This document shows, one piece after another, positions 862 to 22,557 of a stretch of 29,854 bases of DNA; within the stretch, counting starts at the first letter, position 1, and every line of letters begins with the position of its first letter. Source of the DNA: Nanobdellota archaeon (GTDB lineage: Archaea > Nanobdellota > Nanobdellia > SCGC-AAA011-G17 > JAFCDX01). The notes below the pieces were generated by a model that was not told the origin of the DNA, did no database searches, and saw only the letters and a program-made list of their open reading frames with translations. The stretch spans positions 1 to 29,854 of the forward strand of contig JAHIVQ010000047.1 of assembly GCA_018816585.1 (NCBI GenBank), read 5' to 3'. A program made the position numbers and the translations under genes.

Positions 862-1382
862 TTAACTTTCATCTTTTCAACAATGGCTTTATCTGAAAGA
901 ATAGCAGAATTTCCATTTGGATCTTCAATTACAATTTTTAATGGAATATCACCACATTTTACTTTCCATATTTTCTTTAATAAATTCTTTGCAGCTGTTC
1001 TTGCTTCATTATCTTCTGCACTATCTCTTTCACTAATTAAAATATCTTCAAATTTTTTTAATAAACCTTCCATATTTGAAATAAATCCTATAGATGCAGG
1101 TCCTGGTCTTGAATCCATCCTTAATTGTGGTATTTTTACTGTTGCTGTTCCTGATTTTATAACTTTTACATTAAGATCCTTTTCATTTTCTATTGTAAAT
1201 GTGTATCTGCTTGGATCATTTATACCCTCACATTCAACATCAGACATATGATAGTTGCACTTAGAGCAAGTCATAGAAAAAATAAATACTTTACCAAAGT
1301 GAGGAATATCATTTGTGTCTTCTCTAAGCACTAAATTTTTAGTATTACACATTGGGCATTCTTCATTTTTGATTTCTTCCAT
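858..1382 (-). CDS. ZPR1-family zinc finger protein
   Basis: CPMC...IPHFGKVFIFSMTCSKCNYHMSDV, plus DLNVKVIKS and IEDPNGNSAI. Start placed at the second Met (MEEIK, 1382); the track starts at 1403. Confidence 0.9.
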   Translation of the reverse strand: MEEIKNEECPMCNTKNLVLREDTNDIPHFGKVFIFSMTCSKCNYHMSDVECEGINDPSRYTFTIENEKDLNVKVIKSGTATVKIPQLRMDSRPGPASIGFISNMEGLLKKFEDILISERDSAEDNEARTAAKNLLKKIWKVKCGDIPLKIVIEDPNGNSAILSDKAIVEKMKVK

Positions 1383-1449
1383 TATTAAAAAGATAAAAAA
1401 CAATTTATAAATTTTGTTATTGTAATAAATCTAGTTTAGAAAAAGAATT

Positions 1450-1863
1450 TTATTCCATTTTTGATTTATCATCAGTGCTTGGGAGCTCTTCTGCTACACC
1501 TGCTCTGTAAACTTGTGCAAAATTTGGAGTAACAACAATCCAATCTTCTCCAAAACCTGCTATATCACCTTCAATAGCATCGCATGTTTTCTTTAGTTTA
1601 TTAACAGCTCTTTTTAATTCAATAAGATCCTTTTCCTTTAATGGACCAATATTAACTAGAGCTATAGTATAACCTTCTCTTAAAGAATCAAGAGCTGGTT
1701 TAATATCTGGAAAATCTTGTATTATAAAAGGTCTTACAACTATCTTTGATTTAGGCCCTATATTCTTTTTAGTATCAATTTCAACATAATCTTCCTTAAA
1801 CTCTTCAGGAAAATCAGAATAATTACCTTTGAATTTGTCTTTTATTTTGGATAATATGCTCAT
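1450..1863 (-). CDS. sepF: Cell division protein SepF
   Basis: DIKPALDSLREGYTIALVNI...LKRAVNKLKKTCDAIEGDIAGFGEDWIVVTP is the SepF core, in the conserved UPF0147-SepF-ZPR1 neighbourhood. Start is probably MSIL (1863). Confidence 0.88.
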   Translation of the reverse strand: MSILSKIKDKFKGNYSDFPEEFKEDYVEIDTKKNIGPKSKIVVRPFIIQDFPDIKPALDSLREGYTIALVNIGPLKEKDLIELKRAVNKLKKTCDAIEGDIAGFGEDWIVVTPNFAQVYRAGVAEELPSTDDKSKME

Positions 1864-2840: not shown

Positions 2841-2936
2841 TTTTAAATCTTTTTAAAATCCATTATTTATAAATGTTTAGTATGGGGCTACCCGGATTTG
2901 AACCGGGGTCGCAAGGTCCCAAACCTCGAAGCGTAA

Positions 2937-2963
2937 TTGCTTTTGGTTTTATTATTTACCAAC
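2937..2963 (-). other. tRNA intron 2 (27 nt, D-loop position 19/20)
   Basis: GCTT/AAGC central helix, bulges GGG and AAT, inner TTGGT/ACCAA hairpin, short TA/TA outer helix. Removal gives the D-loop AGCTTGGTTA. Confidence 0.85.
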
Positions 2964-2980
2964 CCAAGCTAGCCCATAGC

Positions 2981-3007
2981 GTGATGCTTTATTATTTATT
3001 TTAAAGT
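2981..3007 (-). other. tRNA intron 1 (27 nt, position 3/4 in the acceptor stem)
   Basis: CCCATAG/CTATGGG outer helix, GATG/CATC central helix, bulges GGA and ACG, inner CTTTA/TAAAG hairpin. Cleavage after the second bulge nucleotide restores GGGGCTA, which pairs with TAGCCCC. Confidence 0.85.
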
Positions 3008-3013
3008 CCCATC

Positions 3014-3826
3014 CTATGGGTTATATATTACCCCATTAGCTTTACAAGGTTGTATATCATTAATAAATCTTACTACTTCATCTTTTCTGTACAAGCAAGC
3101 ATTTCTTTTATTCGCCTTTGCAAAGGAATATCCTAAATTTTTAGTTACTTCTTTAAAATCATCTAATAATTGCTGATTAAAATTTGTGAACTTTATATAA
3201 ATATGTTTCTCTCTTTTACAAAAATAAATACAACCATCAGTATCGATTAAACCACCTATGCATCTTTTTGAATATAATTTATTATTCTTAATCCAATTAG
3301 GGATTCCAACTTGGCTTTTTATTTTATCTCCTTTTTTAAGACCTAACTTAACTAACCTTTTAATTAAATTTTGATTATAATAATACAAATGTGCTTCATT
3401 TCTTTTTGGATTAATTCTTTTTTTAAATTTAAGATTAAAAGTTTCTTTAAATAAATTATTTACATATTCTATATAATTTGTATTTCTTTTATCGAAAGTG
3501 ATATTTAATGTATTTTTATATACACTTCCATCCCCCAATATTATTCCAATAAATTCTGCTAATTCTTTATTTTTTCTAATTGGTTTAACAGGTTCTGAAT
3601 ATGCGTATTTTCCTAAATTTTTAACATAATCAAATTTAATCTCTTTTAATTTTATCTTTAAATTCAGCATTTCTTCTAATTTTTTAAGGTGATTCTCATT
3701 TATACTTAAATTTCTATAATAAATATTCTTTACTTCAAAACCCAATTTTTGCCTTATTTGTCTTAAACTGTAACCACTTTTTCTTATACTTCTTTTTAGT
3801 TCATTATTTATTAGATATCTCTTCAT
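3014..3826 (-). CDS. Free-standing LAGLIDADG (DOD/intein-type) homing-endonuclease-like protein with putative N-terminal HTH
   Basis: Two motifs, LAEFIGIILGDGSV and CIGGLIDTDGCI, both with the catalytic-position Asp. No intein splicing blocks or host extein are visible. The N-terminus has LKRSIRKSGYSLRQIRQKLG. Confidence 0.8.
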   Translation of the reverse strand: MKRYLINNELKRSIRKSGYSLRQIRQKLGFEVKNIYYRNLSINENHLKKLEEMLNLKIKLKEIKFDYVKNLGKYAYSEPVKPIRKNKELAEFIGIILGDGSVYKNTLNITFDKRNTNYIEYVNNLFKETFNLKFKKRINPKRNEAHLYYYNQNLIKRLVKLGLKKGDKIKSQVGIPNWIKNNKLYSKRCIGGLIDTDGCIYFCKREKHIYIKFTNFNQQLLDDFKEVTKNLGYSFAKANKRNACLYRKDEVVRFINDIQPCKANGVIYNP

Positions 3827-3851
3827 TTAATAAAAATAAAGGAAATTTCCC

Positions 3852-3916
3852 TTATAAACCCTGCGCGCACACTTTGCAAGTTGCAATTTACTCTAAAATA
3901 TATATTACAGAATATA
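3852..3916. repeat. 65-bp dispersed element, copy 1 (TATA box plus upstream palindromes)
   Basis: ttataaaccctgcgcgcacactttgcaagttgcaatttactctaaaatatatattacagaatata; 64/65 identical to 11995-12059 in the same orientation. Confidence 0.95.
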
Positions 3917-4020
3917 GATTAATGTTTCTGCTAAAGAAAAAACTAATTTACTGAATCTCATTTACAAATTCCACCTGAAAATAGAATACTAATTAAGTTA
4001 ATTGCTAAATACTTAAGAAA

Positions 4021-4323
4021 TCACTTATTCAACTTCAATTCCAATCCATCTGGAGTTAAGAGAACTTCATAATTACCAGAATTTATTTGATCTTTTATAT
4101 CTTGGTAACCTCTTTTTGCATCAATCTCATTATTCCAGCTTTTAATCTGATAACCATGAATACTTGGAGTTATGGAAATAAAAGCTATGTAATTACCACT
4201 CCAATCTTTTTCAAGAGATAAGGCTAATTTAGAATCTTCAGAAATCCTACCTATCTTAATTTTATCTCTTTCCAGAGAGAATTCAGTTAAATCAATATTA
4301 TCAAGTGGGTCTGGCATATGCAA
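4021..4323 (-). CDS. Hypothetical protein (100 aa)
   Basis: Clean ORF with normal composition; no motif recognised. Confidence 0.6.
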   Translation of the reverse strand: MHMPDPLDNIDLTEFSLERDKIKIGRISEDSKLALSLEKDWSGNYIAFISITPSIHGYQIKSWNNEIDAKRGYQDIKDQINSGNYEVLLTPDGLELKLNK

Positions 4324-4380
4324 TAAGATAGAAATAATTGTATATAATACTTTTGGTAATATAACAATTTTAGGGTTCCA

Positions 4381-11755: not shown

Positions 11756-11854
11756 TTAATCACTGTAACCTTCCATGAATGCTGCTTCTCTTATATCTAT
11801 CTCGTCATCTTCAAGCATCTTTCTTATTCTCCTTTTTGAATAAATGTCATTCAT
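11756..11854 (-). CDS. Small acidic-tail protein (32 aa)
   Basis: MNDIYSKRRIRKMLEDDEIDIREAAFMEGYSD*; the ATG overlaps the upstream ORF's TGA (ATGA coupling). Not in the track. Confidence 0.65.
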   Translation of the reverse strand: MNDIYSKRRIRKMLEDDEIDIREAAFMEGYSD

Positions 11855-11958
11855 TTTGTGCCGAACCTGATAATTCTCTCTGTTGGTAGATTGCTTATAG
11901 TCTCACTAAATATCCTTCTAACTAAGTCTTGGTCCATATTTGGATAGTAAAATTTCAT
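11851..11958 (-). CDS. Small protein (35 aa)
   Basis: MKFYYPNMDQDLVRRIFSETISNLPTERIIRFGTK*; GAGGTGA SD at 11971-11965 and TTTATAAA box at 12001-11994. Not in the track. Confidence 0.6.
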   Translation of the reverse strand: MKFYYPNMDQDLVRRIFSETISNLPTERIIRFGTK

Positions 11959-11994: not shown

Positions 11995-12059
11995 TTATAA
12001 ACCCTGCGCGCACACCTTGCAAGTTGCAATTTACTCTAAAATATATATTACAGAATATA
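11995..12059. repeat. 65-bp dispersed element, copy 2
   Basis: ttataaaccctgcgcgcacaccttgcaagttgcaatttactctaaaatatatattacagaatata; one T/C difference from 3852-3916. Confidence 0.95.
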
Positions 12060-22372: not shown

Positions 22373-22455
22373 AGGGCGCACTGGGATTCGAACCCAGGAT
22401 TCGAGGGTTCTGCATTAAATTGCAGCCTCGTGCCTTACCGCTTGGCGATGCGCCC
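22373..22455 (-). tRNA. tRNA-Cys(GCA) with a 12-nt intron at 37/38
   Basis: GGGCGCA...CGAGG CTGCAA [TTTAATGCAGAA] C CCTCG...TTCGAAT...TGCGCCC T. Intron at 22419-22408 in a bulge-helix-loop; U73 discriminator. Confidence 0.92.
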
Positions 22456-22458
22456 AAA

Positions 22459-22533
22459 CGGGCCCGACGGGATTTGAACCCGCGACCCTCTGCTTAGAAG
22501 GCAGATGCGCTATCCAGGCTGCGCTACGGGCCC
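22459..22533 (-). tRNA. tRNA-Arg(UCU), intronless
   Basis: GGGCCCG TA GCGC...TCTGC CTTCTAA GCAGA...TTCAAAT...CGGGCCC G; 3 nt upstream of tRNA-Cys, so co-transcription is likely. Confidence 0.96.
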
Positions 22534-22557
22534 ATAGAAATATCAACTAGTTTATTC

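Follow-up and report, generated by a model that had tools for sequence, protein, structure and literature searches.

A probable LAGLIDADG homing-endonuclease gene at the 5' end of tRNA-Pro in DPANN archaea

Background

It has long been unclear how archaeal tRNA genes come to have introns at unusual positions. The locus described here, from a Nanobdellota archaeon, places an open reading frame (ORF) for a LAGLIDADG protein immediately ahead of a tRNA-Pro gene that contains two introns of the bulge-helix-bulge (BHB) type. "The window" is the whole stretch of DNA that was analyzed, 29,854 nucleotides (nt) of contig JAHIVQ010000047.1; coordinates are window positions, and the ORF and tRNA-Pro both lie on the minus strand. 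Labels beginning with G, L and C denote genomes, loci and contigs, and all relatives compared are metagenome-assembled genomes. In our assessment the ORF is probably a free-standing, site-specific LAGLIDADG homing-endonuclease gene of the tRNA-Pro 5' end of DPANN archaea, with a promoter for the tRNA inside it.

Free-standing homing endonucleases are described in T4-like phages, where SegF, SegG and MobE are associated with "intronless homing", and with "collaborative homing" when an intron lies nearby (PMC2988022; for MobE and I-TevIII, PMC2790892). The present gene resembles these phage genes in lying outside an intron or intein and beside a conserved gene, in having its own promoter, in its patchy distribution, in the apparent co-movement of flanking DNA, and in having a possible intron partner. 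It differs in encoding a LAGLIDADG rather than a GIY-YIG or HNH protein, in residing on an archaeal chromosome, and in its putative target, a tRNA gene. Unlike the phage nuclease genes, ORFs of the family described here overlap the target gene, appear to re-supply its 5' end, and carry its predicted promoter. The partner intron of the phage systems is a ribozyme, whereas a protein-spliced BHB intron is present here, and cleavage by the present nuclease is a prediction.

A second point of comparison is the Caldiarchaeum tRNA-Thr locus, where an integrase-type element brought in an intron and a fragment of the tRNA 5' part stayed behind (Sugahara et al. 2012, PMC3293823). Like the Caldiarchaeum, SSV and pNOB8 elements, the cassettes considered here present a 5' tRNA fragment, a mobile element and then a complete tRNA with an extra intron; as with integrase-type elements, filled and empty alleles occur within a lineage, and the intron comes in the element's own copy of a tRNA segment. 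Unlike the SSV/pNOB8 type, the cassette of ~0.9 kb is without a recombinase and encodes only the LAGLIDADG nuclease. It further departs from integrase-type elements in being specific to tRNA-Pro across many lineages, with an ORF that overlaps the tRNA and holds its predicted TATA box.

With I-DmoI, I-Tsp061I and I-PorI, the enzymes of BHB introns in rRNA genes, the present protein shares its fold, its domain of life and the splicing machinery of the associated introns. Unlike those archaeal intron-encoded enzymes, it is encoded ahead of exon 1 rather than inside the 27-nt intron, and ~85 additional amino acids form an N-terminal domain. In a full-text literature search, LAGLIDADG proteins of DPANN archaea appeared only tied to rRNA group I introns (PMC6125680). 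The tRNAs of Thermoproteales and Nanoarchaeum are known for non-canonical and multiple introns and for split and permuted genes (reviewed in PMC4090602 and PMC4033280). As in those tRNAs, BHB introns occur here beyond the anticodon loop and several to a gene, and the leader builds part of the BHB as it does in split tRNAs; unlike them, the cassette ends on its right with the 5'-most intron, exon 1 comprises just 3 nt, and the leader is coding sequence. A full-text literature search returned no description of the arrangement in which a LAGLIDADG ORF overlaps tRNA-Pro.

The nuclease gene and the two-intron tRNA-Pro

The LAGLIDADG gene (3826-3014) is open throughout, with 270 codons plus a stop. 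Pfam assigns the product to LAGLIDADG_3 (PF14528) at 38.4 bits, against a cut-off of 22.5 (E = 1.5e-9). The motifs ILGDGS (D99) and LIDTDGC (D197) each contain a catalytic acidic residue; among 30 homologues G98-D99-G100 never varies and conservation of D195-T196-D197-G198 is 90% or higher, so that both catalytic aspartates are kept. An AlphaFold2 model with a mean confidence score (pLDDT) of 89.9 comprises a helical N-terminal domain of ~85 residues followed by two LAGLIDADG domains in the tandem alpha-beta-beta-alpha-beta-beta-alpha fold, which Foldseek matches with probability 1.00 to I-Tsp061I, PI-PfuI, I-SceI and I-DmoI. The closest structure is I-Tsp061I (2dch), an archaeal intron enzyme, and after it come intein nucleases, I-SceI and I-DmoI. 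Judged by sequence and model, fold and catalytic residues appear to be those of an active enzyme. The gene has expression signals of its own and lies outside any intron or intein, upstream of exon 1 of the tRNA, whose introns are merely 27 nt long. It is preceded by a 65-base-pair (bp) promoter/operator element (3852-3916, minus strand) composed of TTGCAA-N-TTGCAA, TGCGCGCA and the TATA box TTTATAA (3858-3852), which stands at the edge of the repeat, 25 nt ahead of the ATG. From this element a leaderless nuclease mRNA would be made.

The ORF ends with CCA (3019-3017) and TAG (3016-3014); three bases follow, and G1 of the tRNA, at 3010, is thus the fourth nucleotide after the stop. The gene for tRNA-Pro(UGG) occupies 2883-3010. 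Its exon 1 is the trinucleotide GGG (G1-G3; 3008-3010), and only the join of GGG with GCUA yields a 7-bp acceptor stem with the 3' strand UAGCCCC. Intron 1 (2981-3007, 27 nt) interrupts the tRNA at position 3/4 and has a strict BHB. Exon 2 (2964-2980) supplies nt 4-19, and after G19, in the D-loop, comes intron 2 (2937-2963, 27 nt), the BHB of which is relaxed: central helix GCUU/AAGC, inner helix UUGGU/ACCAA, and a weak outer helix. Another boundary for intron 2, leaving a 14-nt D-loop, was ruled out, as it gives no tRNA-Pro fold. Exon 3 (2883-2936) contains the 3' part of the D-loop, the anticodon UGG and the T arm, and extends to the discriminator A. Splicing both introns out in silico gives a 74-nt sequence that ARAGORN calls as tRNA-Pro(tgg), with a normal cloverleaf, and that agrees with the intron-less tRNA-Pro of relative G003, which occupies the same place upstream of rpl37ae. 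On the unspliced locus ARAGORN reports no tRNA, and the Rfam tRNA model gives the 3' part (2883-2965) 22 bits, under its 29-bit cut-off; around the ORF there is no group I intron or other Rfam family at gathering thresholds. The gene at 2883-3010 is the sole tRNA-Pro-like gene found in the assembly (0.88 Mb, 27.7% GC, 88% complete), and for that reason must be functional. The ORF/tRNA junction is confirmed by independent Logan contigs from four metagenomes that run across it. The contigs of those four runs include no credible cassette-free or intron-free allele; the few "joints" seen had short sides and came from relatives.

Intron 1 is where the two genes meet. Direct reading of the sequence shows that the outer 5' strand of its BHB is exactly the last codon and stop of the ORF: CCAUAG (3019-3014) pairs with CUAUGG (tRNA nt 5-10), a helix extendable to 7 bp. 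The whole runs CCAUAG-GAUG-[GGA]-CUUUA...UAAAG-CAUC-[ACG]-CUAUGG, with a central helix GAUG/CAUC of 4 bp, an inner helix CUUUA/UAAAG, and 3-nt bulges, GGA and ACG, on opposite strands, each of which would be cut after its second nucleotide. By direct reading and RNAfold the pre-tRNA 5' leader spans 3011-3026 and includes the outer BHB strand CCCAUAG (3020-3014) and GAU (3013-3011), the latter being the first three nucleotides of the central-helix strand GAUG, of which the fourth is G1 itself. For a 57-nt stretch RNAfold returns the same three helices in an interior-loop variant (a 3-bp center and 2x2 loops in place of the 3-nt bulges), with z = -3.8 and one of 200 shuffles equally good; for a 154-nt precursor both intron hairpins form, and GGGG of an upstream tRNA relic described below pairs with the 3' acceptor strand.

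Homologous 3/4 introns are present at L030 and L038 and in genome G038. In G038 the leader CCACAA faces the exon UUGUGG, such that two pairs are altered on both sides relative to the window (U-A to C-G, and G-C to A-U), and the outer helix is, on these two sequences, supported by covariation. The outer helix of the L038 intron pairs poorly, and it is a relaxed BHB at best. In one metagenome contig (run X3) the coding-strand C at window position 3018 is replaced by A, so that the last codon reads CAA instead of CCA and the outer helix loses one pair near its distal end. An original prediction, made from the window's letters alone, had placed a LAGLIDADG gene against the intron-containing tRNA, with CCA TAG in the outer helix of the 3/4 BHB, G1 4 nt after the stop, a TATA box for the ORF at the edge of the repeat, and none at the normal distance from the tRNA; all of this holds up, with the addition that a box does lie farther away, 49 nt before G1.

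An ORF family that overlaps tRNA-Pro

Among 5.8 billion proteins searched, 209 are homologues, and they belong to Woesearchaeota, Pacearchaeota and Nanoarchaeota; among the 120 matches listed, most are full length (~240-300 amino acids, 47-88% identity over at least 86% of the query) and about ten are truncated. Against the ORF of the sister species GCA_018302305.1, which is 88% identical, the ratio of nonsynonymous to synonymous divergence (dN/dS) is 0.12. From 80 loci taken from species-representative genomes, those with a full-length protein match (L025-L055 less three that are broken or truncated, together with the sister and the window) were aligned to an intron-tolerant tRNA-Pro reference. 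Two nanohaloarchaeal loci, L053 and L055, were set aside because other tRNAs adjoin the ORF there; 27 loci remain, from Woesearchaeota, Pacearchaeota and Nanoarchaeota.

The ORF overlaps tRNA-Pro in 25 of these 27 orthologous loci, which represent different species. Its stop codon coincides with tRNA nt 13-15 (U13-A14-G15) in 14 loci and with nt 8-10 in 4; in 6 others the ORF runs deeper into the tRNA, and at L038 it covers exon 1 and stops within the 3/4 intron. Some called homologues even end in "...GSNPS.PI", which is a translated T-loop. The only loci without overlap are the window and L030, where a spacer of 64 nt separates ORF and tRNA in the latter; among the 27, exactly these two and L038 have the 3/4 intron. 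Comparison with the sister shows what has changed. There the ORF ends AAT GGG GTT ATC GGC TAG, and GGGGTTAT... within it is the functional tRNA from G1 onward. The window's counterpart codons are AAT GGG GTA ATA, followed by the 16-nt leader and then by the real G1. The eight nucleotides GGGGTAAT (3034-3027), which today are codons for G-V-I, correspond, when the two ORFs are aligned, to G1-U8 (GGGGTTAT) of the sister's functional tRNA and constitute a relic of the ancestral tRNA-Pro 5' end, in the region where transcription is predicted to start. On these alignments the window is best read as one derived member of a tRNA-Pro-linked ORF family.

That an ordinary selfish ORF happened to land beside a tRNA in a compact genome, and that the helix between them is fortuitous, might be entertained in a genome this gene-dense, in which other LAGLIDADG paralogues lie near tRNAs with separate promoters. 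Chance of this kind is strongly disfavored, and we regard it as extremely improbable: in 25 of 27 species it is tRNA-Pro that this ORF family overlaps, the leader/exon pairing covaries between loci, and the z-score of the fold is -3.8.

Filled sites, empty sites and decay

Within the order, orthologues (E <= 1e-30) occur in 9 of 240 genomes (4 of 107 high-quality ones), with a scattered distribution that touches 6 of 29 families. The 7 other genomes in the window's GTDB family all lack one, the best match there being 38% identical and confined to the nuclease core. Between window and sister, synonymous divergence (dS) is 0.56 for the ORF against 1.08 for the adjacent rpl37ae and 1.17 for prefoldin, and protein identity is 88% for the ORF and 78-80% for the flanking genes; the tRNA intron positions are wholly different, the window having the 3/4 and D-loop introns and the sister one beside the anticodon and one in the T arm.

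Relics of tRNA-Pro also stand upstream of the gene. About 17 loci have a decayed copy of tRNA nt 1-27 ahead of the ORF start, with a TATA box ~25 nt ahead of the copy, and in about nine of them the copy ends 0-9 nt short of the ATG. In the sister the copy reads TATA-N24-GGGGTTAT, and the 65-bp element comes directly after. Directly repeated tRNA sequence thus borders the cassette on both sides; the repeat measures 8 nt (GGGGTTAT) in the sister, and in the ~17 loci it is a decayed copy of up to 27 nt. At L052 the relic GGGGCCG pairs perfectly with the 3' strand CGGCCCC, whereas the functional GGGGCTG needs a G-U pair, as expected if the original 5' end of the recipient survives as the relic and the cassette brought in the functional copy.

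Comparisons within genera provide empty alleles. In genomes G039 and G040, tRNA-Pro lacks introns and has a normal promoter. In G038, the flanks of which are 89-97% identical to theirs, 924 bp replace 47 bp that comprise the native promoter and G1-G3. The 924 bp consist of a LAGLIDADG pseudogene with a frameshift, TTTATTAA, a relic GGGGAT..., the leader CCACAAGAU, GGG and a 3/4 intron of 23 nt; from exactly the 3' splice site of that intron onward, the sequence is again homologous to the empty alleles. No tyrosine recombinase is present in the insert, which has the LAGLIDADG pseudogene only, and the neighbors of the sister's cassette are L11 and L37ae. The same pattern is repeated by G094, with cassette and 3/4 intron, and G093, with neither, and G091 and G090 are a further filled/empty pair. 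Near the tRNA-Pro of the cassette-free G090 (L156, G090:C26), ~60 nt upstream, there is a TATA box 58 nt before G1 and a stretch, ..CUGGAUGGG.., that is like the leader and exon 1 of 3/4-intron loci, with no recognizable BHB; a cassette or intron that has since been lost may have left it there.

Decay is seen in three forms: G013 (L149, G013:C2:15677-17100) has an internally deleted mini-ORF of which only the N- and C-terminal ends remain, G075 (L150, G075:C50:1668-3100) has only a 3' tail encoding "..SEVRFIKD..", and G038 (L151/L152, G038:C21) has its frameshifted pseudogene with a TATA-bearing tail. Patchiness, filled and empty sites, decay, low dS and the upstream relics would together mark the ORF as a mobile, site-specific cassette, a selfish gene that runs through its life cycle at one constant location.

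There is something to be said for a domesticated LAGLIDADG protein that serves the host in connection with tRNA-Pro, perhaps as a DNA-binding regulator or processing helper, and that is inherited vertically and often lost: the dN/dS of 0.12, the 209 homologues, most of those listed similar in length, the invariant position beside tRNA-Pro, and the extra N-terminal helical domain. We nevertheless find it quite improbable. The gene occurs in fewer than 4% of the order's genomes and is therefore dispensable, its product retains the catalytic Asp residues, as active nucleases do, some copies survive only as pseudogenes or deletion remnants, its dS is half that of flanking genes, and congeners have clean empty sites.

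A predicted tRNA promoter within the ORF

At least 14 tRNA genes of this genome have an 8-nt TATA box that ends 21-25 nt ahead of G1, so that these tRNAs are almost leaderless. No such box lies 21-25 nt ahead of G1 of the window's tRNA-Pro. The predicted box is TTTATTAA (3067-3060), inside ORF codons F254-I255-N256; from its end it is 25 nt to the relic G at 3034 and 49 nt to the real G1. It is part of the conserved peptide ..VVRFI(N/K)DIKP.., encoded by ..AGA TTT ATT AA.., and is conserved in 17 of 19 core orthologues (both codons counted), where, given the usual ORF/tRNA overlap, it stands 24-28 nt ahead of G1. Synonymous-codon identity among 19 orthologues peaks at codons 246-255 (0.75 vs 0.57 overall), the top of 28 windows. 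The ORF-deleted remnants in G013 and G075 retain precisely the TATA-bearing tail, abutting tRNA-Pro. From TATA to G1 the distance is about 43-44 nt at L038 and L030 (L030 having its own box in the spacer) and ~50 nt in G038; the box is thus distant at these three other 3/4-intron loci, and long leaders go with the 3/4 intron. From these comparisons tRNA-Pro probably has its own start site inside the ORF, near 3034-3036, with a predicted leader of 24-26 nt that includes the whole outer BHB strand.

The original prediction held instead that nuclease mRNA and pre-tRNA form one transcript, separated by the splicing endonuclease, and that the nuclease cuts intron-less tRNA-Pro while the introns protect the host allele, in analogy to collaborative homing. 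In its strict form the joint transcript would be obligatory and made from the promoter of the 65-bp element. In favor of a joint transcript are G1 as the fourth nucleotide after the stop, the lack of a TATA box at the usual 21-25 nt, and the fact that BHB and RNase P cuts would leave the stop codon of the ORF intact, unlike in the overlapping relatives; no obvious terminator was noticed between the genes, none having been searched for. Against it are the conserved internal TATA, at canonical spacing from the ancestral G1 and retained after ORF loss, and L030, which with the same kind of 3/4 intron has a 64-nt spacer and its own TATA. An independent tRNA start inside the ORF, named in advance as the observation that would speak against the joint transcript, is what the conserved TTTATTAA predicts, and it counts against an obligatory one. 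A single transcript may still be made, but it is no longer needed.

Introns and the nuclease

The second half of that proposal can be judged from the introns themselves. Among the 27 linked tRNA-Pro genes 11 are intron-less, 10 have a D-loop intron at the position of the window's intron 2, 3 have the 3/4 intron, and 7 have introns in the 3' half. For comparison, 39 tRNA-Pro(UGG) genes were taken from genomes of the order without orthologue or remnant, and the linked set, with remnants counted, was brought to 30. Introns in the 5' part are commoner beside the cassette (12/30 vs 5/39, Fisher p = 0.012, with phylogeny ignored and the samples drawn differently), the 39 having four D-loop introns and one 3/4 intron; for the D-loop intron alone the figures are 11/30 vs 4/39 (p = 0.017, subject to the same two reservations), and 3'-half introns do not differ between the linked and comparison sets. 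The D-loop intron had first appeared to be cassette-linked (11/30 vs 2/35), a reading weakened by the cassette-free congeners G090 and G093, which carry it as well. The 3/4 intron, in the two within-genus comparisons of G038 and G094, is confined to the cassette-bearing allele, and its link with the cassette is real in those two genera.

Collaborative homing draws support from the 5'-part enrichment (12/30 vs 5/39, p = 0.012) and from the restriction of the 3/4 intron to cassette-bearing alleles in two genera. In its strict form it would put an intron in the target of every nuclease-bearing genome, and what is found is that 11 of 27 linked tRNAs are intron-less, that the sister has the ORF yet no intron in the 5' half of its tRNA, those it has being in the 3' half only, and that D-loop introns occur in the cassette-free G090 and G093. 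Intron protection is therefore not general, and the claim that introns shield the host allele while the nuclease targets intron-less ones fails as a general rule. On joint inheritance of nuclease and introns the observations point both ways: the 5'-part enrichment and the 3/4 intron in two genera speak for it, and the D-loop introns of the cassette-free G090 and G093 against it. Taken as a whole, the proposal of an obligatory joint transcript with intron protection seems to us rather unlikely. Its core idea, a mobile nuclease tied to tRNA introns, gains support from the patchy distribution, the enrichment of 5'-part introns and the two genus comparisons.

A model for the cassette

If the ORF is a homing-endonuclease gene, as we think probable, the mobile unit would be ~0.9 kb long and comprise the promoter, the ORF and, at the 3' end of the ORF, a replacement copy of the tRNA 5' segment, with the tRNA's TATA box contained in the last ~15 codons. 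Cleavage by the nuclease would presumably fall near the 5' part of tRNA-Pro genes that have no cassette, and repair would then copy the cassette, with the tRNA body and the relic upstream as homology arms. Upon insertion the resident promoter and 5' segment would be displaced upstream, where they decay and in many lineages may drive the nuclease gene, or else be replaced outright; the tRNA would from then on rely on the cassette tail. In the window the right end of the cassette would consist of the relic GGGGTAAT, the 16-nt leader, the 3-nt exon 1 (GGG) and the 27-nt BHB intron. Pre-tRNA would be transcribed from the TATA in the ORF tail, with read-through from the nuclease promoter a possible but not required addition. 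The leader, itself coding sequence, would fold onto exon 2 to make the BHB; the splicing endonuclease would remove both 27-nt introns, and with a ligase would join the cassette-borne GGG to the resident tRNA body, and RNase P would trim the leader at G1. In the window, unlike in overlapping relatives, a read-through transcript so processed would leave the ORF its stop codon.

We go further only tentatively, and with less than even confidence, in proposing that homing-endonuclease cassettes are a vehicle for the gain and spread of BHB introns in archaeal tRNA genes. The 3/4 intron would be the splice-out joint at the right end of the cassette, grafting promoter, leader and a 3-nt exon onto the resident tRNA, and decay of the nuclease would leave behind an orphan non-canonical intron and a long leader.

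Several observations weigh against a mobile nuclease gene with an internal tRNA promoter. Identity of the ORF and identity of rpl37ae are only loosely correlated (r = 0.55), which fits mobility but also a short, noisy marker. In 11 loci the tRNA beside the ORF keeps an intact 5' half, a state that offers the host allele no evident escape from cutting. The fixed address and strong purifying selection would also suit a domesticated gene. The synonymous-site signal at the predicted TATA box is modest, being the best of 28 windows, and the codons in question (F-I-N/K) are also what an AT-rich genome would use by default for the conserved peptide. A run search placed the sequence in DNA metagenome runs only and in no RNA run. 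Finally, intron positions come from a heuristic gapped alignment, and from relatives that are all metagenome assemblies.

The 65-bp element and neighboring features

The 65-bp element is present in 12 genomic copies, each ~13-67 nt (mostly 22-26) ahead of an ATG. Two are in the window (3852-3916 and 11995-12059), and the others are on contigs C31, C44, C50, C56, C60, C86, C90, C98, C100 and C112. The sister's orthologue is also preceded by the element, and its core occurs in 3 other genera of the family. Several of the ORFs behind it are LAGLIDADG-like, by motifs read by eye, with Pfam confirmation for the window ORF alone; further ones, named by eye from their translations, are an 88-residue ORF followed by a RadA-like gene, an Lhr-like helicase and several small ORFs. 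The element looks like the mark of a recombination/repair regulon shared with selfish nucleases. The window's second copy stands ahead of a 35-residue ORF, followed by a 32-residue ORF that ends ..EAAFMEGYSD (11757-11958, minus strand).

Gene order in the sister is FtsZ-SecE-Spt5-L11-cassette-tRNAPro-L37ae (L105:2156-3000). Upstream of the element in the window (3917-4330) are small, unrelated ORFs, unlike the sister's L11, an arrangement that suggests, on gene order, a rearrangement with its breakpoint at the repeated 65-bp element.

Three of the LAGLIDADG paralogues lie beside other tRNA genes that contain introns. The one on C50 (~1290-1480, minus strand) is followed by a tRNA with a long intron and an anticodon that reads by eye as CCA, probably tRNA-Trp; the one on C100 lies between two tRNAs of 105-107 nt (2558-2664 and 3501-3605, plus strand); and the end of the one on C112 (~2990-3120) appears by eye to overlap the 3' end of an opposite-strand tRNA. 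None overlaps its tRNA in the manner seen at tRNA-Pro, and the tRNAs on C50 and C100 have a normal TATA box 25 nt before G1. Elsewhere in the window (22373-22534, minus strand) tRNA-Arg(TCT) lies 2 nt from an 83-nt tRNA with a 14-nt insert in its anticodon loop, to which ARAGORN assigns no identity.

Implications

For annotation, the locus is a case in which the sole tRNA-Pro of a genome goes unreported by ARAGORN and falls below threshold in Rfam, and in which the ORF calls of some relatives run straight through a tRNA. The one concrete earlier model of tRNA intron gain that we found is that of an integrase-type element at a single Caldiarchaeum locus (PMC3293823). The LAGLIDADG/tRNA-Pro cassettes would be a second system, widespread and with many natural replicates, in which the cassette arrived together with the 3/4 intron in at least two genera and appears to carry the tRNA promoter. 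It is also of a size suited to the bench, with one protein of 270 amino acids, one tRNA gene, and defined empty and filled alleles. By taking over the promoter of an essential, single-copy tRNA, a selfish gene of this kind would make itself hard to delete, and the remnants that are found keep exactly that tail.

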